From a virus (Duplodnaviria > Heunggongvirae > Uroviricota > Caudoviricetes): a stretch of 39,749 nt of DNA. Position numbers and translations under genes: made by a program. How positions within the stretch are numbered: the stretch's first letter is position 1; each line of letters starts with the position of its first letter. Shown here one piece after another: positions 1-39,749 of the stretch. The notes beneath the pieces are model-generated. The model worked only from the letters and a program-made list of their open reading frames with translations, ran no database searches and had not been told where the DNA came from. The stretch lies in the IMG/VR virus record IMGVR_UViG_2541047827_000012. The stretch is one strand, 5' to 3'.

Positions 1-516
1 ATGAAATTTAAAAAATGTCTTCTGCCTGTGGCAACGTTAGCGTCATTCACTCTGGCAGGATGCCAGTCAAATGCTGATGATCATGCCGCCGATGTTTATC
101 AAACCGATCAACTGAATACCAAACAAGAAACTAAAACCGTTAATATTATTTCCATTCTTCCCGCAAAAGTTGCCGTAGACAACTCCCAAAATAAACGAAA
201 CGCACAAGCCTTCGGCGCGCTTATTGGTGCAGTCGCTGGCGGTGTTATTGGCCACAACGTCGGGTCTGGCAGCAATTCCGGAACGACGGCAGGTGCAGTT
301 GGCGGCGGAGCTGTTGGCGCGGCAGCGGGTTCTATGGTGAATGATAAAACCTTAGTGGAAGGTGTTTCTTTAACGTATAAGGAAGGCACCAAAGTGTATA
401 CCTCCACCCAGGTGGGTAAAGAGTGCCAGTTTACGACAGGTTTAGCCGTTGTTATTACCACGACGTATAACGAAACGCGTATTCAGCCAAATACGAAATG
501 TCCTGAAAAGAGCTAA
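1..516 (+). CDS. Lipoprotein with glycine-zipper domain (SlyB/Pcp-like), probably host
   Basis: ATG at 1; signal peptide ending in lipobox LAGC; Gly/Ala-rich GAVAGGVIGHNVGSG...GAVGGGAVGAAAG glycine-zipper stretch; stop 514-516. Confidence 0.6.
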   Translation: MKFKKCLLPVATLASFTLAGCQSNADDHAADVYQTDQLNTKQETKTVNIISILPAKVAVDNSQNKRNAQAFGALIGAVAGGVIGHNVGSGSNSGTTAGAVGGGAVGAAAGSMVNDKTLVEGVSLTYKEGTKVYTSTQVGKECQFTTGLAVVITTTYNETRIQPNTKCPEKS

Positions 517-531
517 TGATCAGGAGGAGTC

Positions 532-1071
532 ATGAAGAAAGTTTTTCTTTGCGCCATCTTAGCCTCCTTAAGCTATCCGGCTATCGCCTCATCATTGCAG
601 GATCAACTCTCTGCTGTCGCAGAAGCGGAACAGCAAGGTAAAAATGAAGAGCAAAGGCAGCATGACGAATGGATCGCGGAGCGCAACAGGGAAATCCAGC
701 AAGAGAAGCAACGTCGCGCAAACGCCCAGGCCGCCGCTAACAAAAGAGCGGCAACGGCAGCGGCAAATAAGAAAGCTCGTCAGGATAAACTGGATGCCGA
801 AGCCACTGCGGACAAAAAACGCGATCAAAGTTATGAAGATGAGCTACGCAGCTTAGAGATTCAGAAACAAAAACTGGCGCTGGCGAAAGAAGAAGCCCGC
901 GTTAAGCGCGAAAACGAATTTATCGATCAGGAACTGAAGCACAAAGCTGCGCAAACCGATGTGGTGCAATCTGAAGCTGACGCAAACAGGAATATGACTG
1001 AGGGCGGTCGCGATCTGATGAAAAGCGTGGGCAAAGCAGAAGAGAACAAATCGGACAGCTGGTTTAACTAA
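532..1071 (+). CDS. Secreted Lys/Glu/Ala/Gln-rich coiled-coil protein, function unknown, probably host
   Basis: Strong SD (caggaggag) before ATG 532; N-terminal Sec signal MKKVFLCAILASLSYPAIAS; low-complexity charged helical body. Confidence 0.5.
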   Translation: MKKVFLCAILASLSYPAIASSLQDQLSAVAEAEQQGKNEEQRQHDEWIAERNREIQQEKQRRANAQAAANKRAATAAANKKARQDKLDAEATADKKRDQSYEDELRSLEIQKQKLALAKEEARVKRENEFIDQELKHKAAQTDVVQSEADANRNMTEGGRDLMKSVGKAEENKSDSWFN

Positions 1072-1118
1072 GCGATGTCAGTAACTTCAAGCCTATGATT
1101 CGTGAGTATAATAAATAT

Positions 1119-1142
1119 CCTCCGGCATAGCCGGAGGTTTTT
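1119..1142 (+). terminator. Rho-independent terminator after the host gene
   Basis: 8-bp GC-rich stem CCTCCGGC/GCCGGAGG with 3-nt loop, followed by TTTTT. Confidence 0.6.
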
Positions 1143-1151
1143 CAAATGCGC

Positions 1152-1858
1152 CTATAAGGCTCTCTTACCAGCCGCGCCCTAACAGGCGCACACGATCTGA
1201 CATTTGCATCCAACTTCGTTACTTACGGCCCGTAAACGGGCTGCCCGGATAGGGAATCGATAACTGCTCTCCCATTTTATCCTCTTCAAGCTGGTGCTTT
1301 ATGTAATCCTGTATCTTCGCCGTGTTCTTACCCACTGTATCGACGTAGTACCCTCTGCACCAGAACTCCCTGTTCCTGTATTTGAATTTCAAATCACCAA
1401 ACTGCTCGTAAAGCATCAGACTGCTTTTCCCTTTCAGATATCCCATAAACCCGGATACGCTCATTTTAGGCGGGATCTCCACAAGCATATGGATATGATC
1501 TGCACAGCATTCAGCTTCCAGAATCCGTACGCTTTTCCACTCACACAGCTTTCTCAAAATACTGCCTATTGCTCTACGCTTCTCTCTGTAGAACACCTGT
1601 CTTCGGTATTTTGGCGCAAAAACTATGTGATATTTACAGTTCCATCGGGTGTGCGCTAAGCTCTTTTCGTTCCCCATTGGGACCCCCTTTTGATTTCTTG
1701 TTTGACACTTGCAGTTGCCAGACCGCAAGGTGTTTTAACAAATCAAAAGGGGTTTTAATAACTGGCTCAAAGCTGAAAGCTTTCCGGAACCCCCAGCCTA
1801 GCTGGGGGTTTTCTGTGCACAAAAAACCCTCTGTAGTAACAGAGGGTTTTGTTCATTC
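1152..1858 (-). mobile_element. IS200 insertion sequence (IS200/IS605 family), ends approximate
   Basis: Contains the IS200 TnpA gene; upstream of tnpA are the two hairpins expected at the IS200 left end (CCCCCAGC/GCTGGGGG at 1790-1808 and A-run/CCCTCTGT-agta-ACAGAGGG/T-run at 1821-1850). About 707 bp fits IS200; exact ends not determined. Confidence 0.7.
1219..1677 (-). CDS. tnpA: IS200 transposase TnpA (Y1 HUH transposase), 152 aa
   Basis: Translation MGNEKSLAHTRWNCKYHIVFAPKYRR...HIHMLVEIPPK...GYYVDTVGKNTAKIQDYIKHQLEEDKMGEQLSIPYPGSPFTGRK matches IS200 TnpA as I recall it; the HxH and catalytic Tyr regions are present; start chosen at the internal ATG (1677) with SD AGGGGG, not the track start at 1728. 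Confidence 0.9.
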   Translation of the reverse strand: MGNEKSLAHTRWNCKYHIVFAPKYRRQVFYREKRRAIGSILRKLCEWKSVRILEAECCADHIHMLVEIPPKMSVSGFMGYLKGKSSLMLYEQFGDLKFKYRNREFWCRGYYVDTVGKNTAKIQDYIKHQLEEDKMGEQLSIPYPGSPFTGRK

Positions 1859-1999
1859 ATAGTGCAGGGTCAAATCATTCCCACTCAATTATTTACGATA
1901 ACCATAACCAATTGAGTGATAACATTTTTCCAAATCTCAATTTTTATCGTACCGTTTTATATACCGTCACCGGAAATCAGTACCATGAAAAATGCCATG

Positions 2000-2482
2000 C
2001 TATCTGGTCAGGGTGTCGTACTGTTTTTCACAGACTCTTCCGGCTTCGGCTGCCCGGTCAGCATACTCTGCCAGTTGTCTGTTTCTCTCGAGAGATTTAC
2101 TGAGCACGTCGGCAAGCAAAACTCCGGTGTCTGCGGCTGACGTCCCAGCGCCGACAATGGCGTTATACTGCCTGAGCTGCTCACGGATGGCAACGAGCTG
2201 TTGCTGCAACCGGCCAGCGCGAGCGGCAGCATCAAGAGCATCATTGCGCGCCTGGTCGATCCTCTGCTGCGCTTCACGTTCATTGATCGCTTTCTCCTGT
2301 TCGTAGTGCTGACGAATTCTCTCATCTTCGGTTTTGCGGTCTTCTTTCGCCTGCGCATACCCGGCGTCGTACTGACGACTGCCGTGTACACTCCAGGCAA
2401 CAACTCCTGATATGACCAGAACAGCAAGCACCGCCATGATAATCAACTGTTTCCGGTATGCTTTTACGAATGCCCAGATCAT
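2000..2482 (-). CDS. Rz-like i-spanin (lysis)
   Basis: N-terminal TM segment then Ala/Gln/Arg-rich coiled coil; directly downstream of the endolysin and overlapping its stop; contains an embedded lipoprotein ORF in another frame. Confidence 0.6.
2008..2283 (-). CDS. Rz1-like o-spanin lipoprotein embedded in Rz (+1 frame)
   Basis: Frame inside Rz encodes [26 protein letters not shown] (signal plus lipobox LAGC) followed by a Pro/Ser-rich short tail; start could instead be the ATG at 2244. Confidence 0.5.
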   Translation of the reverse strand: MNVKRSRGSTRRAMMLLMLPLALAGCSNSSLPSVSSSGSITPLSALGRQPQTPEFCLPTCSVNLSRETDNWQSMLTGQPKPEESVKNSTTP

Positions 2483-3108
2483 ACCGCCAGCACCTTACTG
2501 GCATTGATGTATCGCGCGCGCCGGTCGTCGATGCCGTTCCGGCCACCATTGATAATCAGAGTTACACGTGCAATATCGCCGGTATACTTCATGCATCCTT
2601 TGCTGGCAAAGAACCACGCCGCGCTACGAGCCGCGTATTCGTCCTGCGCCAGCAGTTCAGGACTCTCCAGCAGGTCAACCTTAAGACCGTTTCCACAGTC
2701 ACGATAGTTATTCAAACCGGTAACCTGGATAAGCCCGCGCCCACGGTAGTTCCAGCCATCACCAGGGGCATTGTTCCCCATGCGTTTGCTGTACACCAGA
2801 TTGGCAATCGCTCTCTGGCGCTCAAGTGGCAATGGTGGTTCGCCTGCACGTCGCCCCAATGCGTTGGCCTGTCCCTGAGTGAGACGCCCAGCCCGAACAA
2901 AGTTAGCCAGTCCGCTGACGCTGTAGTTGAAATTCTCCTGCAACCGGGTGAAGCCTCCAGACTCATGCCCGACCTGAGCAATAAACATAGCCTGATCTTC
3001 TGGTTTGCTGATACCAAACTCTTTCATCGCAGAAGTTATATGCGAGAACCAGCGTGCGGCCAGTGCCTCGCTGATACCAGCAGCTCGCTGGAATTGTTTA
3101 ATCTCCAT
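2479..3108 (-). CDS. Endolysin, glycoside hydrolase family 19 (chitinase-like lysozyme)
   Basis: Motifs GHESGGF and [15 protein letters not shown] resemble GH19 catalytic/signature regions; sits between holin candidates and Rz. Confidence 0.75.
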
Positions 3109-4296: not shown

Positions 4297-6482
4297 GAAA
4301 CTTCCCCATTGGTTGAAAATATGGCTCCTCCAACGCCAAGTGTATTTCGTGTTGTGCTCAACCTCAGAGGGCTGGAGTCAGAATTAGAATATCCTGTAGC
4401 AGAAATAAAAGATCCTCCACTAATAGTCAACTGCGGAACATCGGCTATATCTGAATAAGTTCTGTCAGCAACAGTATTATTTATAGCCACATATGATCCA
4501 AAAAAACTTCTTATTGTTTGGTTTTTAACTTTACTTCCTTCAATGGTTATCCTACTACCACAGTCGGCAATAAATCCTGAATCTGCATCCAGCGTTGCAT
4601 TCATAAAAGAAGCTTCAGATCTCTCTACATCAATCCATCTAATATCTTTTGTGGGATTTGCACCAAATACATGACAAATATTAGAGTTAAACCTTACACC
4701 ATCTTGGAGGTGCATTAATTTTTTTATATCTGTACCCCATAGCCTTGGAAAATTAACAGATGCTCCTGCATGGCAATCAAATCCCAGCTCAGCCCCTGAG
4801 ATATCTACAGCCTTTCCTGAAATAACAGCACCAGTGTCTGCATTAACGGCTGTTCCACAATTGCGCATATCATTACCAGCAACATCAACGCAACCCGCAC
4901 CATCAATACGCACACCAAGTGCACATCCATAAAAACCTTTTTCAATATTTGGTTCAAGGACTTTACCACTTGTTTCTGCATCACTTTCTTCAACGTCATG
5001 TCGTCTTGCATCAACATATGCTGTATGAATGCAGGTTAATCCACGATATGAGCAATGTATAGTTTTATGGTCGCGTATATTAACATTTGAACCATCTCTT
5101 ACATTCCATCCTATATAACAATAGCTTGCACTTGACCCCTGAAAATCTGCTTTAACATTATAAATACAATTAACTGACGCAACCGTACTCTCTGTGCACC
5201 GTTCAAACTTGCTTACAGGCATTGATGCCTTGACATTATTTACCAGTTGCAGGGAAGAGTATCTGCTATAAGAAAAATCACATACGTAATACCCTTCTGG
5301 CATATATGCAGCAACACTTTCCTCATCAGGAGCACATCCGGTATGATATGCACTAATTTTTGCACCAAAACTACCATGAATTCCAACGTAGAACTTTCGA
5401 GCACCTGAATACGGATAGAAATTAAGTTCAGCTTTTTGAGTTACAATAAATGCACAAACATCGCTATCATCTCTATTTTCTTCGATCTGAATAGCAAATA
5501 CAGGACTTTTTGCTGCATCGCAAATGTAAAATAAATACTTGTATTCGTAATACGTTCTAACGATTTTAGTAAACAAACGAGTGTCAGAGAAAACCACTGA
5601 GTCTTCTGATGTTATTTTAATCCAAGACAAATCAACACCTGAACTGAATTCAATTTGATAGTTGATAATATGCCCGGTCTTAATTCTTATTTCGCAGAAA
5701 GCATTACCACCATCCCACATAGGTCTCATTGACTGGGCTGCAATGATTGCATCTTTGAGTGTAGGGTAATCACCCCATTCGCCAACAGTAATAACAAAAG
5801 TATAATATGAGTTAAAAACAGCGGCATTTTTGCCTTTGGATATCAACTCCTTAATCATAAAAATATTATCTTCGTAATCACAAGGAGAAATTATATCCCT
5901 CATTTTGCTTTGAAATGTTCGTTGTCTTGCCCCGCTTCCTGACGGTATAAACCAACCAAAACCACCAACAACCCCGGCGATTGCAGCATCGACATAATTA
6001 CGCATTGAGCGATTATTTACAGCGTCCTGCTCAAATGATGGATCTGCAAGGTTAGAAATTTTGTTTTGCTTTGCATCGTAATATTTTGCAAGCAAAGATG
6101 GTTTCATCAATGCACGTCTGAACCACCCAAAACATCGCTGGATCAGCATCGTCAGGTAGTCAAATGCATCTTCATGAACTTCGGGGAAAAATTTTCCCTG
6201 ATTGCGAAGATCAGTCTCCTGCACCACATCAAGCACACGCTCTATCGTAATTCGCCAGCCAGCAGCAAGCGGCGACGGGAGAACCACTTCACCGCCACTA
6301 TAAGTGCCCGCTCCAGTTACCTTATAACCGGTATCCAGAACCAATTCTGTTACGTTCCCGTTCAGGTCAGACACCTGAACAACCAGGTCGGTTTTTTTGA
6401 AAATACGGAAGGTATACGGAAATGATGTCGTAACGCCGTTACCGGTGTATTCGTTGTGGTCAACTTCGGTTGAGACCGTCAT
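4293..6482 (-). CDS. Tailspike/tail fiber: conserved T7 gp17-like N-terminal domain plus divergent C-terminal receptor-binding domain
   Basis: 729 aa; N-terminus MTVSTEVDHNEYTGNGVTTSFPYTFRIFK...DTGYKVTG follows the tail-fiber N-terminal adaptor pattern; C-terminal 500 aa is AT-rich with Gly/Ser/Asn/Cys-rich repeats typical of beta-helix receptor-binding domains. Confidence 0.8.
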   Translation of the reverse strand: MTVSTEVDHNEYTGNGVTTSFPYTFRIFKKTDLVVQVSDLNGNVTELVLDTGYKVTGAGTYSGGEVVLPSPLAAGWRITIERVLDVVQETDLRNQGKFFPEVHEDAFDYLTMLIQRCFGWFRRALMKPSLLAKYYDAKQNKISNLADPSFEQDAVNNRSMRNYVDAAIAGVVGGFGWFIPSGSGARQRTFQSKMRDIISPCDYEDNIFMIKELISKGKNAAVFNSYYTFVITVGEWGDYPTLKDAIIAAQSMRPMWDGGNAFCEIRIKTGHIINYQIEFSSGVDLSWIKITSEDSVVFSDTRLFTKIVRTYYEYKYLFYICDAAKSPVFAIQIEENRDDSDVCAFIVTQKAELNFYPYSGARKFYVGIHGSFGAKISAYHTGCAPDEESVAAYMPEGYYVCDFSYSRYSSLQLVNNVKASMPVSKFERCTESTVASVNCIYNVKADFQGSSASYCYIGWNVRDGSNVNIRDHKTIHCSYRGLTCIHTAYVDARRHDVEESDAETSGKVLEPNIEKGFYGCALGVRIDGAGCVDVAGNDMRNCGTAVNADTGAVISGKAVDISGAELGFDCHAGASVNFPRLWGTDIKKLMHLQDGVRFNSNICHVFGANPTKDIRWIDVERSEASFMNATLDADSGFIADCGSRITIEGSKVKNQTIRSFFGSYVAINNTVADRTYSDIADVPQLTISGGSFISATGYSNSDSSPLRLSTTRNTLGVGGAIFSTNGEVS

Positions 6483-6981: not shown

Positions 6982-7248
6982 ATTTACATCGCACTCCTCT
7001 TGTGCCATAGTAATCGGGCACTGGCAAAATCCAGTGCCGGGATTGGCGTCCCGAGTTACTACAGAGGCACATATGCCGCATAAGCGGTTTTTTTTATGTG
7101 TAAAGCGCACCTATTCTATGGTGGGCTGTGTGGGGGCACCGAAAGGTGCGCCGGGTCCTTTGTAGCCGGTTACGCCAACCCTGCACAGTTCACCACCAAC
7201 CGATTGGCGTCGGTAGTGGTGATTAACCTAACTACAAAGGTGATCACT

Positions 7249-7935
7249 ATGACTGCTAACGTAACCCCATCTGTTTTTCATTTTGAATCAGAAGCAACCA
7301 TTCGAGCCATTGTTATTGATGGAAATCCTTGGTTTGTTGCCAAAGACGTTATTAAAGCTCTTCAACTGACAAACCCCACTATGTCAATAAAATCTCTTGA
7401 TGATGATGAAAGGGCTAAATTTAACTTAGGCCGTCAAGGCGAAACCAATATTATCAACGAGTCAGGCCTCTACACACTGATCCTCCGCTGCCGCGATGCA
7501 GTAACACCAGGCACTATCCCCTACCGCTTTCGCAAATGGGTTACAGGTGAGGTTCTTCCTCAGATCCGCCGCACCGGAAGTTACATTAAAAACTCGCTCC
7601 CGCAGGAAGAACGCATAAAGATGGTTGCCGACCAGGTTGCAAACGCCACAGCATCAGCAGTGATGCAGGCAATGAAGATAGAGAACAAAACCTACAGCGC
7701 CCCACTGAAGCCCGGCTACCGCAGCCTGATTCATTCGCCGTCTGGTGTTCTCGGCCTGACGGAGAACTCACTGCTGATGAATTTGCTGAACCAGTTACAG
7801 GAAGACGGGCATGACGTATCGGGCGCGGCGGCGGAGCTGACTACCATGTTCTGCTACATCGTCGGTGTGAGCAAATGCCTGCGTGATATCCAGACGCACG
7901 CGGAGTACATCAACGACAAGGCAGGGTTCTTCTGA
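7249..7935 (+). CDS. Antirepressor (Bro-N domain plus KilA-C-like C-terminal domain)
   Basis: SD AAAGGTGA before ATG 7249; Bro-N pattern FHFESEATIRAIVIDGNPWFVAKDVIKALQL...ESGLYTLILRCRDAVTPGTIPYRFRKWVTGEVLPQIRRTGSYI. Confidence 0.8.
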   Translation: MTANVTPSVFHFESEATIRAIVIDGNPWFVAKDVIKALQLTNPTMSIKSLDDDERAKFNLGRQGETNIINESGLYTLILRCRDAVTPGTIPYRFRKWVTGEVLPQIRRTGSYIKNSLPQEERIKMVADQVANATASAVMQAMKIENKTYSAPLKPGYRSLIHSPSGVLGLTENSLLMNLLNQLQEDGHDVSGAAAELTTMFCYIVGVSKCLRDIQTHAEYINDKAGFF

Positions 7936-8008
7936 CAGAACGGCGGCACAGGGATGTGCCTTTAAATAATTCTGTACAGATTGCAGACCGGGGGTGAATA
8001 GCGTACTA

Positions 8009-8023
8009 TTACCTTAAAGGTAA
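8009..8023. promoter_or_regulatory. Operator-like palindrome TTACCTTAAAGGTAA overlapping a putative promoter
   Basis: Perfect TTACC-N5-GGTAA; putative -35 TTGCAG (7981-7986) and -10 TACTAT (8004-8009) with 17-bp spacing put the site over the -10 and start of the 8050 operon. Confidence 0.55.
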
Positions 8024-8049
8024 ACCATGTGTTTACATGAGGAGGAGAT

Positions 8050-8259
8050 ATGGGATTTTGGTTCGCTCGTACAAAAACGAGGGATAATGCACCCAGCCCT
8101 CAGGCAAAAAATGCAGAAGTTCCGGCGTCAGCGCAGGTTAACAAGCGTGGTGGTGTGTATATCTCATCACAGCAAATTTCTGAGCTTCCTGAGGTTAAGG
8201 AGATGCGTCGTCTCGCTGCTGCAATCGTTAAACAGGATCTTGCCACTGTAAGGAAATAG
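8050..8259 (+). CDS. Hypothetical 69-aa protein, first gene of accessory operon
   Basis: Strong SD GAGGAGGAG 6 nt before ATG 8050; stop overlaps start of the next gene. Confidence 0.5.
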   Translation: MGFWFARTKTRDNAPSPQAKNAEVPASAQVNKRGGVYISSQQISELPEVKEMRRLAAAIVKQDLATVRK

Positions 8260-9125
8260 TGTTGTTAGCTCTTCTAATTATCCCCATTCTGGTTAGTGGT
8301 TATATTATGATAACCGCTAACCAGTATCATTATTTCCGTTTATACCGACATGAAGGCCAGCTTCTTTATATGAAAGTAGCTGCATTAGGTACATATTGCC
8401 TTGTTGCTTCGGTAATAATTGCCGCATTTATAAAATATAAATATCCTGATTTTCACCTAGTTCACGATATGGTGGAAACTTTTAATGTAACGTCAAAACC
8501 AGAAACAGATAGAATTTACATGTGGCTGCTTCTTCTCTCAGCCACATCCATTTGCTTCTCTTTGTGTTATGTGTCTGTTGTGTGGGTGAAAGATTTTCTT
8601 CTTGGTTGTTTTTATAAACGTGATATTTATGAGCAAAAAACAGAGGCAATGAAGGCCAGAGTACTGCGAAAAACTTACTCGCAAGGTTCTTTAGACTTAC
8701 TATTGCTTGATGCTATTGAATCGGATCCTAAACGACCAATGCTGATTACTTTATCATCAAACAAAGTGTATGTTGGAATAATAAATGGTTCTGGTGAACC
8801 AACGGAAAATCAGGGTCCGCATCAGCACATATCTTTTGTTCCTTTAATGTCAGGATACAGGAACAAAGACAACTTATCTGTCACATTCACTAATGCTTAT
8901 CCAGGAGAAATACAGGTCAAGCGGACTGCAGCAATAAGAGGAATTAGCAGAAAGAAAGTGCCAGGACTTGAGATCATGGTGTCTATTGACGAAATAAGTT
9001 ATATATCATGGTTTGATTTTGAAGTATATAAAGCAACAAATAACAAAGTAGAATCCAGGGGGCACGTTATTCGTGTTACCAAAAATGGAAGAAATATATA
9101 TCAAAGAAATAGCAAAAAAGAATAG
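8259..9125 (+). CDS. Membrane-anchored protein of unknown function (N-terminal TM helices plus 160-aa soluble domain)
   Basis: GTG start at 8259 overlapping upstream stop (SD AGGA 8251-8254); about 3 hydrophobic helices in the first 110 aa; markedly AT-rich versus flanking phage DNA; followed by a terminator. Confidence 0.6.
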   Translation: MLLALLIIPILVSGYIMITANQYHYFRLYRHEGQLLYMKVAALGTYCLVASVIIAAFIKYKYPDFHLVHDMVETFNVTSKPETDRIYMWLLLLSATSICFSLCYVSVVWVKDFLLGCFYKRDIYEQKTEAMKARVLRKTYSQGSLDLLLLDAIESDPKRPMLITLSSNKVYVGIINGSGEPTENQGPHQHISFVPLMSGYRNKDNLSVTFTNAYPGEIQVKRTAAIRGISRKKVPGLEIMVSIDEISYISWFDFEVYKATNNKVESRGHVIRVTKNGRNIYQRNSKKE

Positions 9126-26308: not shown

Positions 26309-26385
26309 GTGGCATTAGCTCAGTTGGACAGAGCAACCGCCTTCTAAGCGGTTGGTCGCAGGTTCGAATCCTGCATGCCACGCCA
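26309..26385 (+). tRNA. tRNA-Arg (anticodon TCT, reads AGA)
   Basis: Cloverleaf folded by hand: acceptor GTGGCAT/ATGCCAC, D-arm GCTC-AGTTGGACA-GAGC, anticodon stem ACCGC/GCGGT with loop CTTCTAA, T-arm GCAGG-TTCGAAT-CCTGC, discriminator G plus CCA. Confidence 0.9.
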
Positions 26386-26583: not shown

Positions 26584-26922
26584 ATGAACAACCAGCAAAT
26601 CGAAAAAGAAATCGTTGAGAAAGGCAAAACGGCACCGCGCGTTACGCCAGGCCATATCGAAAGCATTATTCTTGCGGAAACGTACTTCACTGCTGCTGAT
26701 GGGGCTATTGCAACTGGCGATGACTATCACGACAGTTTGGCTCTGCTGACATTTTGTGTATTGACTCTACAAAATGGCTTCACCGTCACCGGAGAGAGTG
26801 CCTGTGCAAGCCCTGAAAACTTTGACGCAGAAATTGGTCGGAAGATTGCCCGGCAGAATGCTGTAAACAAAATCTGGATGCTCGAAGGTTACTTGCTGAA
26901 GCAGAAGCTAAGCGAGCAATAA
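26584..26922 (+). CDS. Phage Gp49-like protein (112 aa), function unknown
   Basis: SD AAGGTGA before ATG 26584; resembles the small gp49/Sf6 gp66-like phage protein family by recollection. Confidence 0.55.
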   Translation: MNNQQIEKEIVEKGKTAPRVTPGHIESIILAETYFTAADGAIATGDDYHDSLALLTFCVLTLQNGFTVTGESACASPENFDAEIGRKIARQNAVNKIWMLEGYLLKQKLSEQ

Positions 26923-26926
26923 CACC

Positions 26927-26938
26927 GTGACATGTCAC
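26927..26938. repeat. 12-bp palindrome GTGACATGTCAC (copy 2 of 3)
   Basis: Exact 12-mer, 5 bp after the gp49-like stop and 4 bp before the terminator hairpin. Confidence 0.8.
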
Positions 26939-29203: not shown

Positions 29204-29541
29204 ACTATTAATTTCGTTTCATGCCAGCCTTTAGTCACCCAGCATTGCGAGTCACCATTGCACGGGCATGAATTAACTGGAACTCTCTCGCCGCACTTAC
29301 CGCAACGTTTTCTGCTGATCGATTTTATACGCCCGCGCACGCGTGCATCATCCTGGCGGATCAGTAACGCTATATACTCACCAAATTCGTAAGGTGCACG
29401 CCCGGGGCGACGCGTGGCACAGTTACGCTCCAGCATTTCAATTTCCTGAGCATCAAGCACAATCTCCAGCTTACGCACACCAGATGCAGCTTGTCTGGCT
29501 CTCTGAGCGGCTTTGCGCTCTGCTGCTGATTTAGCCATCAA
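29200..29541 (-). CDS. Small Arg-rich protein with C-terminal Cys cluster (putative zinc-finger regulator)
   Basis: 113 aa; C-terminus CGKCGERVPVNSCPCNGDSQC (C-x2-C...C-x-C); last gene before the late-operon terminator. Confidence 0.5.
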   Translation of the reverse strand: MMAKSAAERKAAQRARQAASGVRKLEIVLDAQEIEMLERNCATRRPGRAPYEFGEYIALLIRQDDARVRGRIKSISRKRCGKCGERVPVNSCPCNGDSQCWVTKGWHETKLIV

Positions 29542-29818
29542 TATTCACCTTTATCGCGAACACCTTTACCGGTTTATCACCGAAGTGCGGATGTGTGATT
29601 GTCTTGATTTCATACCCTTCATACGGGACGTCAATTCTTCGACTGAAGTCGTCGCGCTTCGGATATCCCTTTGTGATAATCAGGAGGTCATACTCCCTGA
29701 ACATAATTCGCTTATTCCAGTAGTCATTACACAGGCGATACTCCTCGGTTTTCTCTCCGCGCTTCATCGCGTCAAAGTATTCGCCATTAACGGCCAACTG
29801 TAGATCAGCCACCTGCAA
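29531..29818 (-). CDS. ASCH/DUF3850-like small phage protein
   Basis: Pattern VNGEYFDAMKRGEKTEEYRL...YDLLIITKGYP resembles the DUF3850/ASCH fold family by recollection. Confidence 0.45.
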   Translation of the reverse strand: MQVADLQLAVNGEYFDAMKRGEKTEEYRLCNDYWNKRIMFREYDLLIITKGYPKRDDFSRRIDVPYEGYEIKTITHPHFGDKPVKVFAIKVNIDG

Positions 29819-30332
29819 CCTCCTCCCGTCCTACTGGCGGAAGCATATAAAACCAGTGGGTCGCGTCTCTGCAAACTGTCTTAAAGAGCGAGGCGGGCAC
29901 GAAGCGGTAGCGCATATCTTCATGGTTGGTAGGTGTGAACGCGCACACGCGCTTTTCGCTAGACGGATCCGGCATTTCTTCGAAGCGGGAGATCCAACTA
30001 TCCGGAGTTACCGGAGAGTTGCCATTTATATCGAAGTTTGGCTCTGCGTCCTGAACCAGGAGGATGTAACCATTCTTGGCAGTATCAAGTTCTAACGCCT
30101 CGGTGACGGTACCGAAATAGCGATTACCTAAATCCGCATCACAAGTGCTTACATCAATGGAAACCTCCATGCCTTCGATTAATTCTGGCAAGTTGTAAGT
30201 TTGGCTTACAGGTTCTGCTCCCAGTGATGCCAGTGCAATTCGTGCCAGTTCCATTTGTTCGCCACGAGTAAGCCCGTTTTCAAGCGGATTTTTAATGAAT
30301 AATTCGATACGTTCTTTGGTAATAGTGGTCAT
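29805..30332 (-). CDS. Hypothetical phage protein (175 aa)
   Basis: SD AAGGTGA before ATG 30332. Confidence 0.55.
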   Translation of the reverse strand: MTTITKERIELFIKNPLENGLTRGEQMELARIALASLGAEPVSQTYNLPELIEGMEVSIDVSTCDADLGNRYFGTVTEALELDTAKNGYILLVQDAEPNFDINGNSPVTPDSWISRFEEMPDPSSEKRVCAFTPTNHEDMRYRFVPASLFKTVCRDATHWFYMLPPVGREEVAGG

Positions 30333-30334
30333 AG

Positions 30335-30526
30335 CTATTTCACCTTAATCTCAACATTTCGCAGCTTTAGCTCTACTGGCAGGTCTGACTTTCCTGTTAA
30401 TGCTAATGCGAGATTTTCTGGGGTAATGAGAGCAGTTATTGCTTTCCCCATTGCCAGACGAATAATTATTCGTATTTCGCGATCGTCACATGCTCCTGGT
30501 CGAACGATTGATATTTGTCCGTCCAT
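30335..30526 (-). CDS. Hypothetical small protein (63 aa)
   Basis: Start set at ATG 30526 (SD AAGGAG; 1-nt gap to upstream stop) rather than track start 30577. Confidence 0.4.
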   Translation of the reverse strand: MDGQISIVRPGACDDREIRIIIRLAMGKAITALITPENLALALTGKSDLPVELKLRNVEIKVK

Positions 30527-30527
30527 C

Positions 30528-31181
30528 TCACTCTCCTTTGATGCGAATGCCAGCGGCGCGGATTGCAGCGATGACATCAGAAACTTTGTATGCCATTACC
30601 GTTTGGTAATCATCGTGAAAATCTGTTCGATGAAGCATGCTGCTACGTTCCGGGAGCAGTATTTCCCGCTCCTCCAGTTCTGCTATGCGCTTACTTCCAT
30701 CCGCGATTACTCCCTCGTAATATTCACGCTGCTCGTTGAGTCTTGATTTTGCTGCTTCAAGCTCAACGCGCAGCTTCCCTACCGTTAGCGCAATTTCCTC
30801 GTTCTCCTGGTCGCGGGATTTGATGTATTGCTGGTTCCTTTCCCGTTCATCCAGTAGTGCCAAAGCAACCTTTGGATTAAAGGCAGCAATAAATTCAGCG
30901 TTGTTTTTCAGAACGTGTTGCGCAATCGCCTGACTACTTAGTCGGACCTCATAACCACGTGCGCCACGGTTGATAACCTTGATTTCGTCCATAGCGCCAG
31001 ACTTCAGCCCCGCATTCTCCGCCGCCAGCGCATTAGCACGCGCCAGTTGCACTTCCAGTTGCGTTGCCAAATCGCTGATCAGCTTTGCCACACTGCGCAT
31101 ATCAACGGCACCACATTCTGCTTTCAGTTCCGAAGCCATCTCATGCCCGGCGGCAACTAACCCTTTGATATTACTTTCCAT
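30528..31181 (-). CDS. Hypothetical coiled-coil protein (217 aa)
   Basis: Long predicted coiled-coil segments; early/nin-like region. Confidence 0.5.
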   Translation of the reverse strand: MESNIKGLVAAGHEMASELKAECGAVDMRSVAKLISDLATQLEVQLARANALAAENAGLKSGAMDEIKVINRGARGYEVRLSSQAIAQHVLKNNAEFIAAFNPKVALALLDERERNQQYIKSRDQENEEIALTVGKLRVELEAAKSRLNEQREYYEGVIADGSKRIAELEEREILLPERSSMLHRTDFHDDYQTVMAYKVSDVIAAIRAAGIRIKGE

Positions 31182-31242
31182 CTTTACCCTCGCTTATCCA
31201 CATAACTTATTGATTACATTGATAACTAAAAAGATCGTCGAT

Positions 31243-31587
31243 TCAGAACTCTTCGATGTTCCAGCCACCACCTGCTTTCTTTGGTTTAACCGTTACCCCG
31301 ATGATTCGGAACGGATACTGATCTGCGGCGACTTTGGTTTTCACCCTGGCGTCGTCGGTCCAGAAACCTTTCACTTCGTGCAGTTCCATCTCGCCGGTGA
31401 CGAGCATCACAGCGAAATCGGGCGTATAGAACGTGTTGTCAGCTAACCGCAGCTTGATACCCTCGAATCGATACCAGGCGATTTCCCCTGCACGTTTACG
31501 CTGCTCAAGGTGCTGGCAATACGCAGATTCTGTTTTGTTCATCTGGCCTGTTTTGAGTCGACCAAGAGCCTGTATCTGTTTTCTCAT
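31243..31587 (-). CDS. Putative PD-(D/E)XK-fold nuclease (114 aa)
   Basis: Motif YTPDFAVMLVTGEMELHEVKG resembles the D...E-x-K nuclease core; SD GAGG lies within the palindromic site at 31591-31605. Confidence 0.45.
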   Translation of the reverse strand: MRKQIQALGRLKTGQMNKTESAYCQHLEQRKRAGEIAWYRFEGIKLRLADNTFYTPDFAVMLVTGEMELHEVKGFWTDDARVKTKVAADQYPFRIIGVTVKPKKAGGGWNIEEF

Positions 31588-31590
31588 GAT

Positions 31591-31605
31591 TTACCTCTGA
31601 GGTAA
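31591..31605. promoter_or_regulatory. Operator-like palindrome TTACCTCTGAGGTAA
   Basis: Perfect TTACC-N5-GGTAA, 4 bp upstream of the nuclease start codon and overlapping its RBS. Confidence 0.55.
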
Positions 31606-31652
31606 TTAAAAACCACATAAGACACTAAATCAATAGAATTTAGAATATTTTG

Positions 31653-31667
31653 TTACCCAATAGGTAA
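31653..31667. promoter_or_regulatory. Operator-like palindrome TTACCCAATAGGTAA
   Basis: Perfect TTACC-N5-GGTAA in the 117-bp gap between the P-like and nuclease genes. Confidence 0.55.
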
Positions 31668-31704
31668 CTATCGAGGCGTAAAAAAATGCGCTATCGCGCT
31701 GGTA

Positions 31705-32505
31705 TTACTTGATAAATCCTGCCGCCTTTCCCCGCCTGTATTCCTCCATCAGCCACTGCGCCGGTGTTATTCCCCCAAGGGTGGCGGCGTTAGGCATGCA
31801 CCCGAAACTTCGCCCTGGCGGGTGGTAAACGTCTCTCCCTGTGTCCGGAGGTGTACTCATGGGTTCTGGCTTTGCCTGTATGCTGATCACCGGATCGGGT
31901 ATCTGCTGTCCGGAAGCCACCTTTTTCGCCCAATCATCGAGCAGCCTGCGCGCGTGTTTCTCAACCTCAATCTCGCTAAGCTGGCGCTGATACATTGCAC
32001 GGCGGGTATCACATACGACCCAGTACATAACCGGATGTCGCCACGGGAATCTTTCGGGACCGCCAGGATATAAACTTTTTTCCTTGCTGTACCGGTGAAA
32101 CTCCGCCATCACATCGTCAATGGTGACGCCAAGAACCATCTTGCTGTCTTTGCACCACTTGATGAATTGCCCTGGCGACGGCCAGAACGGAGATTCACTG
32201 GCGCGGGCGTGGCGCATACCAGCAGAAACCTGTTCACGGGTTCGGATCCCCCCTTCGGCAAACGCAGCAATCCACTGCTGTTTTGCAGCAACTTCCTGCT
32301 CTGGCGTCTTCAGGTTGGTTACCACTGCCGCCGGAAACAGTTGTTTCAGCTGTTTAAAAAGGGCATCAACAAGCCTCTCTGCTGACATGTTCACCACATT
32401 GTCATTGTTGACGTATTGATGCTCATAACCTGACATGCGAGAAAGGGCTTCTCCGTCACGGTTTTGTATCGCGGTAAAAACGTTGTTCACAAGAAATCCT
32501 CCCAT
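31705..32505 (-). CDS. Replication protein P-like (DnaB helicase loader)
   Basis: Central region ...QQWIAAFAEGGIRTREQVSAGMRHARASESPFWPSPGQFIKWCKD... closely parallels lambda P as I recall it. Confidence 0.75.
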   Translation of the reverse strand: MGGFLVNNVFTAIQNRDGEALSRMSGYEHQYVNNDNVVNMSAERLVDALFKQLKQLFPAAVVTNLKTPEQEVAAKQQWIAAFAEGGIRTREQVSAGMRHARASESPFWPSPGQFIKWCKDSKMVLGVTIDDVMAEFHRYSKEKSLYPGGPERFPWRHPVMYWVVCDTRRAMYQRQLSEIEVEKHARRLLDDWAKKVASGQQIPDPVISIQAKPEPMSTPPDTGRDVYHPPGRSFGCMPNAATLGGITPAQWLMEEYRRGKAAGFIK

Positions 32506-33278
32506 GCTTCAGGGCTGTTCCAGTGCGGAACGTTGTTATCAGGTAATGTTGATTGCTTCTGTCTGCTAATCTGCAGCCGCCTTGCCAGCTTCTGCTCCCA
32601 CTGTGCCTGATGGTATGCCTTACCCTCAGCCATCCAGTAAATTCTGAACTCTGCAAGTTCCTGTGCCGTTGGCAGACTGTCCAGGTAGATCCCCTGCAAT
32701 GAGCTTTTCCGAAGAAAGTCATCTGATGGCTGCCATTGTTCATGCATGACAAATTTGCCTAATTGCCCTGGCCCACCAGGAGGAACAAAGTTATTCATCA
32801 CGGCGTTGTTTGCGCCGGGGTCATGAGGCACAGAATCCCCGCTTTTTGTCCTGCTCTCCCTCTCTTGGTTAAATGACTGGTTATATGACTGGTTCTGGAT
32901 CCCGTTTTTGGGATCATTCAACATCCCGTTTTTGGGTATATTCCCTTTTTCGGTAACATTACCGTTTTCGGGTTCATTGCCCCCCTCTCGGTTGCCTTTA
33001 ATGTTCCCGTTTTTGGTTATATTAAGAGAGAAAACCCGCACTCTTTTTGTCGCTCCCTTTCTCTCCCCGGTATCTGAAATAAGCCCCATTTTCATGAGCG
33101 ATATAAGTCCGGCCTGCACGGTTTTTTTATTCAGGCAAGTGTCTTTAACGAGGCGTTCTATGCTGGGGTAGCAGAGGTTATATTCATCGGCTCTGTCAGC
33201 CATCGAGAGCAGTATGAGCTTTAATGACGAGCTACCTGGATCTGTCTCCCAGGCCCAATCTGTTGCATGTCTGCTCAT
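32487..33278 (-). CDS. Replication initiator (lambda O-like / DnaD-like HTH), contains the origin
   Basis: N-terminal HTH-like segment, low-complexity Asn/Gly/Lys linker encoded by iteron DNA, conserved C-terminal domain; overlaps P-like gene start. Confidence 0.65.
   Translation of the reverse strand: MSRHATDWAWETDPGSSSLKLILLSMADRADEYNLCYPSIERLVKDTCLNKKTVQAGLISLMKMGLISDTGERKGATKRVRVFSLNITKNGNIKGNREGGNEPENGNVTEKGNIPKNGMLNDPKNGIQNQSYNQSFNQERESRTKSGDSVPHDPGANNAVMNNFVPPGGPGQLGKFVMHEQWQPSDDFLRKSSLQGIYLDSLPTAQELAEFRIYWMAEGKAYHQAQWEQKLARRLQISRQKQSTLPDNNVPHWNSPEAWEDFL
32866..33020. repeat. Putative replication origin: five iteron-like repeats (CCCGTTTTTGG) plus tandem ATGACTGGTT repeats
   Basis: Iteron cores at 32901-32911, 32925-32935, 32943-32953 (CCCTTTTTCGG), 32961-32971 (ACCGTTTTCGG), 33006-33016; tandem ATGACTGGTT at 32873-32882 and 32885-32894; all inside the O-like linker region as in lambda ori. 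Confidence 0.6.
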
Positions 33279-33293
33279 GATTAATCTCCGCTA

Positions 33294-33494
33294 TCAGCTT
33301 GAATGTTGTGGGGAGGAATTAATCATGATCTGCTTAATCTCTGCCCTGATACGACGGTTTGATTCCATGGTGCACTCAACACAGTGTCCGTTGTAAACCC
33401 AGCGTTCACTGTCATGTCCGTGCTTACATGTTTTTCCGGTGTAGTAGCGTTTAAGTCCGCGCTTTGCGGCATCAATACGTGTAATGATTTCCAT
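33294..33494 (-). CDS. Small Cys/His-containing protein (66 aa), hypothetical
   Basis: Start set at ATG 33494 (SD-like AGGG); motif C-K-H-G-H...C-V-E-C; the two upstream in-frame ATGs lack RBS. Confidence 0.4.
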   Translation of the reverse strand: MEIITRIDAAKRGLKRYYTGKTCKHGHDSERWVYNGHCVECTMESNRRIRAEIKQIMINSSPQHSS

Positions 33495-33574
33495 GGTAAG
33501 CCCTGTTATTAGTATTGGGATTACGGTCATTTTGTGCTGACACAAAAAAAATATCAACCAGATTTGGTTTTTTA

Positions 33575-38498: not shown

Positions 38499-39749
38499 TT
38501 ATTCCCCCGCCATCCACTTCTCAAACTTCGACGGGGAGAACGGAATCAGATCCGTATGCTCCCCGTTAATCCAGGAATCAATCATATCGGCCCACTGCTG
38601 CAACATGTAGGCGCGCTGTCTGGCGTATTCCGCTTTGTTATATACGGCGCGCACACCTTTCTGCTCATGTGCCAGAGCCTTTTCAATCCAGTCTGAAGGA
38701 TAACCAGCCTCATGCAACAACGTACTGGCTGTACGGCGCATATCGTGTACGGTGAAGTCCTGAATATGCTCACCATCTTCATTTATTATTTTCACCGTTC
38801 TGTCGATCAGAGAGTTCAGCGCGGCATTAGATAATGGCTTCCGGAAATTGTAACGACCAGGAACCAGATATTCACTTCCACCAGCGCACATCTGCAACCC
38901 GACCAATATATCCTGTGCCTGTTTAGGCAGGTAAATAACGTGCGCCCGGCTTCCCTTCATGCGGTCTGAAGGAATTGTCCATGTCCATTTTTTAAAATCT
39001 ATTTCATCCCACGTTGCATTGGTGAATTCGCCTTTACGAACCATAGTGATAAGCACCAGCTTTAAAGCCATTTTCATAGTGCCCATAGCACCAATGGCAT
39101 CCAGCGTGCGGAAGAACAGGCCAATTTCTTCTGGTGTCAGTGTTCGCTCTCGTGGTTTAAATATGGCGATAGACGAAGGTTTAATGTCAGCCGCAGGATT
39201 AAACAAACCATGACCACGGTCATTGGCGTGACGGTATACGCTGCTGATGATCTCCCTGGCCTGTACTGCTGTTGCCCGACCACCGCGTTCGACAATCCGG
39301 TCACACAAATCACGAACCATCGATGTGGTAATTTCAGCCATCATTTTGTTGCCAAGAACCGGAAGTATGTCACGGTCGATCACCGCCTGCTTCATTGCGC
39401 GGGTACTGTCAGCCAAGATGACGTGTTTCATATAACTGTCGGTATGTACCGCAAACGTCTCGGCACCACGAATCTTTTTGATACCGTCACGTTTAGCCGC
39501 AGCCGGCGACTGGCCTGCTTTAAGCAGCTTCTTTGCAGCAATCAGTTCTTCTCGCGCTTCTGCCAGGCTGATACCGTCACGCCCATACTGCCCGATTACC
39601 AATGTTTCGCGGCGACCGTTGATACGGTAGTCATAGCGAAACGAGACCGTGCCTGACGTAAGCACAGCTACATACAGCCCGTCACGATCGGAGACCTTGT
39701 ACAGTTTGTCCTGCGGCTTGAGGTTTTTTAATTTTGTATCGGTAAGCAC
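38499..39749 (-). CDS. int: Tyrosine integrase, P4-like; N-terminus at or just beyond the window edge
   Basis: N-terminal LTDTKLKNLKP arm-binding motif; C-terminal catalytic residues (HDMRRT...AHE...VRAVYNKAEY); the ORF is open to the last base, so the first codon(s) may lie outside. Confidence 0.85.
   Translation of the reverse strand: MLTDTKLKNLKPQDKLYKVSDRDGLYVAVLTSGTVSFRYDYRINGRRETLVIGQYGRDGISLAEAREELIAAKKLLKAGQSPAAAKRDGIKKIRGAETFAVHTDSYMKHVILADSTRAMKQAVIDRDILPVLGNKMMAEITTSMVRDLCDRIVERGGRATAVQAREIISSVYRHANDRGHGLFNPAADIKPSSIAIFKPRERTLTPEEIGLFFRTLDAIGAMGTMKMALKLVLITMVRKGEFTNATWDEIDFKKWTWTIPSDRMKGSRAHVIYLPKQAQDILVGLQMCAGGSEYLVPGRYNFRKPLSNAALNSLIDRTVKIINEDGEHIQDFTVHDMRRTASTLLHEAGYPSDWIEKALAHEQKGVRAVYNKAEYARQRAYMLQQWADMIDSWINGEHTDLIPFSPSKFEKWMAGE

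Follow-up and report, generated by a model that had tools for sequence, protein, structure and literature searches.

An IS200C element beside an ε15/phiV10-type prophage at the guaA 3′ end of Escherichia coli

The window analysed here, a viral record of 39,749 nucleotides (IMG/VR IMGVR_UViG_2541047827_000012), starts with the E. coli host genes yfgH and yfgI and runs as far as a phage integrase, up to its start codon. An IS200 element lies close to the lysis cassette of the prophage, and this raised the question of whether the IS had inserted into the prophage-host junction, where it could have affected excision or marked a later rearrangement, or whether it belongs to the host DNA beside the prophage. 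The answer depends on the exact borders of the IS, on the position of the attachment site, and on the occurrence of the two elements, together or apart, in other genomes. The features of the locus are collected in Table 1.

Table 1. Coordinates of the host, IS200C and prophage features of the window
Feature	Position	Strand	Basis or remark
yfgH, host gene	1-516		E. coli gene at the start of the window
yfgI (DUF5384), host gene	532..1071	+	Pfam DUF5384 9.1e-62; RefSeq annotation of the identical MS 198-1 sequence
Host intergenic remnant 3′ of yfgI	1072-1109		
IS200C, complete, 711 bp	1110..1820	-	left end (upstream of tnpA) 1820, right end 1110
IS200 right-end subterminal hairpin	1119..1137	-	9 nt from the IS end; DNA fold -10 kcal/mol, z -3.5
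tnpA, 152-aa Y1 (HUH) transposase, intact	1219..1677	-	Pfam Y1_Tnp 3.8e-38, profile positions 2-121 of 121
IS200 left-end regulatory region	1687..1810	-	Rfam STnc490 (RF01405) 146.4 bits vs gathering score 56, E 1.3e-31, full length
guaA terminator, bidirectional, common to convergent yfgI	1821..1850	-	A6, stem CCCTCTGT/ACAGAGGG, T4
Host DNA, guaA terminator to guaA stop codon (bacterial att arm)	1851..1872	.	identical to K-12 attB
att core AATCATTCCCACTCAAT, 17 bp	1873..1889	.	lysis-side prophage end
Phage arm of att site, 110 bp	1890..1999	.	aligns with phiV10 and ε15 attP
Rz-like i-spanin (DUF2514), last lysis-cassette gene	2000..2482	-	Pfam DUF2514 1.9e-41; phiV10 annotation
Embedded Rz1 o-spanin	2008-2283	-	+1 frame inside Rz; lipobox LALAGC
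P4-type tyrosine integrase	38499..39749	-	Pfam Arm-DNA-bind_3, Phage_int_M, Phage_integrase

Borders of the IS200C element and the host terminator beside it

Positions 1000-2100 of the window were 100% identical to E. coli MS 198-1, in which the RefSeq annotation gives the order yfgI, IS200C transposase, DUF2514 (Rz-like), GH19 endolysin, holins, other phage genes, tyrosine integrase, and guaA. In K-12 the gene order is yfgH-yfgI-guaA, and yfgI and guaA are convergent neighbours 92 bp apart, so the prophage sits between these two genes. A scan of positions 1000-2100 for promoters found none.

The borders of the IS were defined by comparison with ten IS200C copies located elsewhere, next to deoD, glcA, galU, yeaH, tonB, plaP, mdtP, and hypT, on a plasmid, and in Nissle 1917. 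All ten copies started with AATAAATATCCTCCGG and ended with ...TTTTCTGTGCAC, measured 711-712 bp and had unrelated flanks, and other E. coli IS200C copies matched the window only over 1110 to 1825/1826. Removal of 1110-1820 restored the uninterrupted yfgI-guaA spacer of the empty-site strain EC36 exactly, over 89/89 nt, with neither a target-site duplication nor a loss of host sequence. The borders of the IS are therefore 1110 and 1820, with an uncertainty of up to 2 nt due to the flanking A run, instead of the ~1119 to 1858 given in an earlier note on this DNA. Near-identical copies were present at unrelated loci, and up to 36 matching places were found per genome, a number that includes host-flank matches. 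The two ends, GTGCAC... and ...ATATTTATT, were not inverted repeats. In these properties the element resembles the IS200 group of the IS200/IS605 family, which likewise has a single Y1 HUH transposase gene, no terminal inverted repeats and no target duplication (PMC4513863); the Salmonella reference IS200 is 707 bp long compared with 711 bp here, and nothing else of note differs.

The coding content agreed with these borders. TnpA contained the residues HIH at positions 61-63 (HUH motif), and Tyr125 in the C-terminal DYIKHQ stretch is the predicted catalytic residue. The protein was identical to the RefSeq IS200C family transposase WP_000526135.1, annotated in the 100%-identical MS 198-1 sequence. 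The claim that the element is a complete IS200 with an intact tnpA was thus borne out by the Y1_Tnp match, the HUH motif and the borders taken from the ten other copies. At the left end, a terminator hairpin was located at 1788-1810, corresponding to IS nt 11-33 on the minus strand, and a stem-loop at 1684-1752 was predicted to sequester the Shine-Dalgarno sequence of tnpA; the z-scores of the folds in these two regions were -3.7 and -6.3. By the Rfam match, this region is also the location of the antisense sRNA art200/STnc490. The left-end layout matched that of the published IS200, in which the terminator occupies nt 12-34 and the stem-loop nt 69-138 (PMC4513863).

Two hairpins of this short region had to be reassigned. 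The hairpin at 1119-1137 was terminator-like on both strands and was found in all IS200C copies at other loci, and it is therefore the right-end hairpin of the IS. Read on the plus strand it resembles a yfgI terminator, which was the source of an earlier misreading: the IS had been placed between a host gene terminator and Rz, and its position between yfgI and Rz holds, but the supposed terminator belongs to the IS itself. The hairpin at 1823-1850, formerly counted inside the IS, is in fact the host guaA/yfgI terminator. It was composed of a perfect 12-nt inverted repeat (AAAACCCTCTGT/ACAGAGGGTTTT) with a fold of -12.9 kcal/mol and a z-score of -5.8, and the whole terminator (1821-1850) was identical in K-12 and EC36, both of which are without IS or prophage at this locus. 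In the window the terminator is parted from guaA by the prophage, and on its other side, reading along the minus strand, its T-run is directly followed by the left end of IS200. In practice, raw sequence makes it easy to mistake the two end hairpins of IS200 and a neighbouring host terminator for one another.

The attachment core and the prophage

The window was identical to the empty site of K-12 over 1821-1889 and diverged from 1890, and homology to phages began at 1873 in 27 phage records matched with near-full coverage, including HEMP4, phiV10, and ε15. In the alignment, the only block common to the K-12 attB, the attP of phiV10 and ε15, the junction in the window and the integrase-side junction of MS 198-1 was the 17-mer at 1873-1889. 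Read on the opposite strand, it consists of the final codons of guaA, ATT GAG TGG GAA TGA, plus 2 nt, and it exactly matched ATTGAGTGGGAATGATT, the core of Uetakevirus attP and of the guaA 3′ end. For phiV10 and ε15, the attP/attB core reported as proven is this 17-mer (attgagtgggaatgatt), at a distance of 190 bp from int, and the same core was verified for vB_EcoP_ZX5 by junction PCR and sequencing (PMC9782041).

In MS 198-1 the 17-mer occurred exactly twice, 40,862 bp apart and bracketing the prophage, and in IAI39 it was present between the integrase and an intact guaA. The window itself, which ends at the integrase start codon, holds one copy, and the second copy was seen in these two proxies, from which it would be expected about 190 bp beyond the window end. 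As aligned, attB, attP, and both junctions form a textbook Campbell arrangement, with the integrase-side junction taken from MS 198-1 and IAI39. The observation named in advance as evidence against an IS at the junction was a core within 1859-1999 with a counterpart beyond the integrase. Such a core was found at 1873-1889, with its repeat in MS 198-1 and IAI39, which places the whole IS in host DNA, 52 bp away from the core, rather than at the prophage-host junction.

The distance from the IS to Rz was 179 bp, not the 140 bp reported earlier, and consisted of 52 bp of host DNA (1821-1872), the 17-bp core and the 110-bp phage arm. A tRNA-derived att site was rejected, since ARAGORN found only a phage-internal tRNA-Arg (26309-26385) and none near the junction. 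The earlier note, which could not locate attL, missed the core because it is not derived from a tRNA. The tRNA-Arg (anticodon TCT) is phage-borne, lies on the plus strand and is opposite in orientation to the adjoining structural genes.

The phage side of the site was well preserved. Positions 1873-1999 matched the attP side of HEMP4, a free-phage record, at 100% identity. The integrase arm-type site ATACCGTCAC (a label from the annotation of the ε15 record) was kept at 1961-1970, and the arm contained a stretch aligning with the IHF sites annotated in the ε15 record. In addition, an inverted repeat was observed (CACTCAATTATTTA / TAACCAATTGAGTG, at 1882-1895 and 1905-1918) in which the right half of the core pairs with a stretch that lies 15 bp inside the phage arm; two core-type sites for the integrase are one possible reading of this repeat, and chance is another.

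By its sequence, the prophage is of the ε15/phiV10 type (Uetakevirus) and is integrated at the 3′ end of guaA. It shares with ε15, phiV10, and vB_EcoP_ZX5 the same 17-bp core with a P4-type integrase about 190 bp away, as well as a lysis cassette of holins, GH19 endolysin, and Rz/Rz1 on the other side of attP. Across the junction region, and in the lysis genes, the window was 95% identical to phiV10. The Rz1 frame is annotated in the phiV10 record and absent from the RefSeq annotation of MS 198-1. The integrase was 98.6-99.2% identical to those of MS 198-1 and IAI39 (99.2% for IAI39), and over the integrase-proximal 6.7 kb the closest complete E. coli genome showed 98.7% identity. HEMP4 was colinear with the prophage and 97-99% identical in most blocks. 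The annotation of the related MS 198-1 prophage includes a gp10 capsid staple and a T7 gp14-like core protein. In contrast to the Uetakevirus phages, the prophage of the window is mosaic with a different tail-fibre module, and its host arm carries IS200 at 52 bp from the core.

Several further observations concerned the phage records. The prophage was mosaic relative to HEMP4, MS 198-1, and IAI39. The segments noted in the comparison with HEMP4 were located at 7226-9118, 26592-26927, and 29538-33553, and several blocks, including parts of the early region, had no counterpart in HEMP4. The MS 198-1 prophage exceeded that of the window in length by about 2.8 kb. The circular record of HEMP4 (OR424387.1) contains a terminal duplication of 127 bp (1-127 and 39765-39891) that includes the att core and is probably an untrimmed assembly overlap; a literature search for HEMP4 returned nothing relevant. 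In the RefSeq record of TL-2011b (NC_019445.1, 148-1723), the host genes yfgG, yfgH, and yfgI are given as phage genes, with yfgH labelled as 'DNA methyltransferase'. TL-2011b is a prophage record in which the host flanks were deposited as phage genome.

Probable target choice of IS200C

In the IS200/IS605 family, as represented by IS608 and ISDra2, the left end of the element lands 3′ of a short target. The flanks of the IS200C copies were consistent with this rule. In 11/11 copies the left end adjoined a GC-rich hairpin followed by a T-rich run, and the T-run touched nt 1 of the IS; the flank before nt 1 ended with TT in all 11 copies and mostly with TTTTT. This hairpin and T-run form the downstream edge of an intrinsic terminator, usually that of a gene in the same orientation. 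The occurrence of all 11 copies at such a structure argues that the IS was drawn to the guaA terminator and not to the prophage junction, and the guaA terminator is most likely the target chosen by the IS200 of the window. The 3′ end of guaA is used by the IS as well as by the prophage, which explains why they lie next to each other.

The flanks agree with a published over-representation of terminator-like sequences just upstream of IS200/IS605 elements (ISME J 2026, PMC13548323). That work described a statistical enrichment within 150 bp, whereas here the T-run was directly at nucleotide 1 of the IS in every copy (n=11). We tentatively propose, as a possibility somewhat short of an even chance, that IS200C selects intrinsic terminators as a structural target, with its left end placed on the last T. 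Such tight contact with the T-run could stem from genuine recognition of a single-stranded DNA target, and not from selection acting once the element has inserted. If terminators are indeed the structural target, the guaA terminator beside the phage attB would be a predictable hotspot.

Probable order of the two insertions

A survey of 5426 complete E. coli genomes separated the two elements. The junction of yfgI and IS200 was present in 131 genomes, and in 22 genomes the IS was followed by the arm of a Uetakevirus phage; the prophage junction without the IS was found in 529. In about 109 of the 131 IS-bearing genomes, attB was not occupied by such a prophage, and in most of these the IS was directly followed by guaA, as in strain M12. 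The 22 genomes with IS and prophage contained three arm variants (99-100%, 97%, and 94% identity) with different tail-fibre genes, which points to a minimum of three different prophages among the lysogens with the IS. By parsimony rather than from a strain phylogeny, the IS most likely predates the prophage and has been inherited within one E. coli lineage.

We hold with high confidence that the locus consists of the host yfgI-guaA spacer, an IS200C beside the guaA terminator and an ε15/phiV10-type prophage at the guaA core, placed side by side. IS200C inserted immediately behind the T-run of the guaA terminator, without duplicating its target and facing the same way as guaA, presumably through the single-strand 'peel-and-paste' reaction of its Y1 HUH transposase, with the left end joined 3′ of a short T-rich target beside the hairpin, by analogy with IS608 and ISDra2. 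The tyrosine integrase of the prophage recombined the attP core AATCATTCCCACTCAAT with the identical 3′ end of guaA. The integrase-side phage arm, as seen in MS 198-1 (2985-3009 of the locus read), contains a terminator hairpin with the stem CCCTCTG/CAGAGGG, the same as the stem of the host guaA terminator, which implies that in the lysogen the phage would supply, on the integrase side, replacement terminal codons for guaA as well as a terminator that resembles the one of the host. On the scale of the lineage, one old IS insertion would have been followed by several independent phage integrations into a working attB.

The short distances of the IS to the core (52 bp) and to Rz (179 bp), and the 22 genomes that carry both elements, would also fit a transposition of IS200 into the junction of a resident prophage, which would mark or cause a later rearrangement. 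We consider this very unlikely, since about 109 of the 131 IS-bearing genomes lack such a junction and M12 has the IS directly beside guaA, the IS-bearing lysogens hold at least three different prophages, and neither a deletion nor a duplication disturbs the colinearity of the flanks with the empty site. The later rearrangement suggested by the earlier note left no sign, given the many IS-bearing genomes without such a prophage, the exact restoration of the ancestral spacer and the intact phage arm. A phage-borne IS, whether native to the phage genome or acquired by it and moving with it, seemed to be indicated by the database match to PKF11, which covered the IS and the phage end and did not include yfgI, but in PKF11 and PKF4 this match is explained by an IS1414 between yfgI and IS200. 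No phage record reaches to the left of 1873 except TL-2011b, which has host flanks and no IS, and HEMP4, phiV10, and ε15 join both phage arms directly at the core. The chance that the IS is phage-borne is accordingly close to nil, the comparison of attP sequences already refuting it.

Whether the IS alters the function of attB, raising or lowering integration or excision through local structure or transcription, was also considered. A bacterial site recognized by lambda-type integrases requires only about 20-25 bp around the crossover. Prophage occupancy was 16.8% with the IS and 10.0% without it (Fisher p = 0.018, calculated over genomes that are phylogenetically non-independent), and the IS adds two terminator-like hairpins at no more than 100 bp from the core. 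We attribute the difference in occupancy to shared ancestry and, since these are related genomes, do not read it as an effect of the IS. The core, the 52 bp of host arm and the whole phage arm are untouched, and together with the small size of the bacterial site this makes an influence of the IS on attB highly unlikely. The IS interrupts neither the att core nor the phage arm and should be without effect on integration or excision; as to the idea that it affects excision, nothing suggests an impairment, and the phage arm (1873-1999) is the same as in HEMP4.

The two elements are well known, as is the attachment site; the IS is already annotated in RefSeq, and the arrangement is an ordinary one. 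The significance of the locus lies in little beyond its correct annotation: the prophage boundary is fixed at 1873-1889, and the att site is the 3′ end of guaA and not a tRNA. The IS is a marker of the host lineage and not a sign of prophage decay. In the kite isolates PKF11 and PKF4, the IS1414 (IS256-like) was located at 4758-5966 of the locus read, between yfgI and the right end of IS200, so that the short yfgI-guaA spacer of these strains holds three mobile elements.
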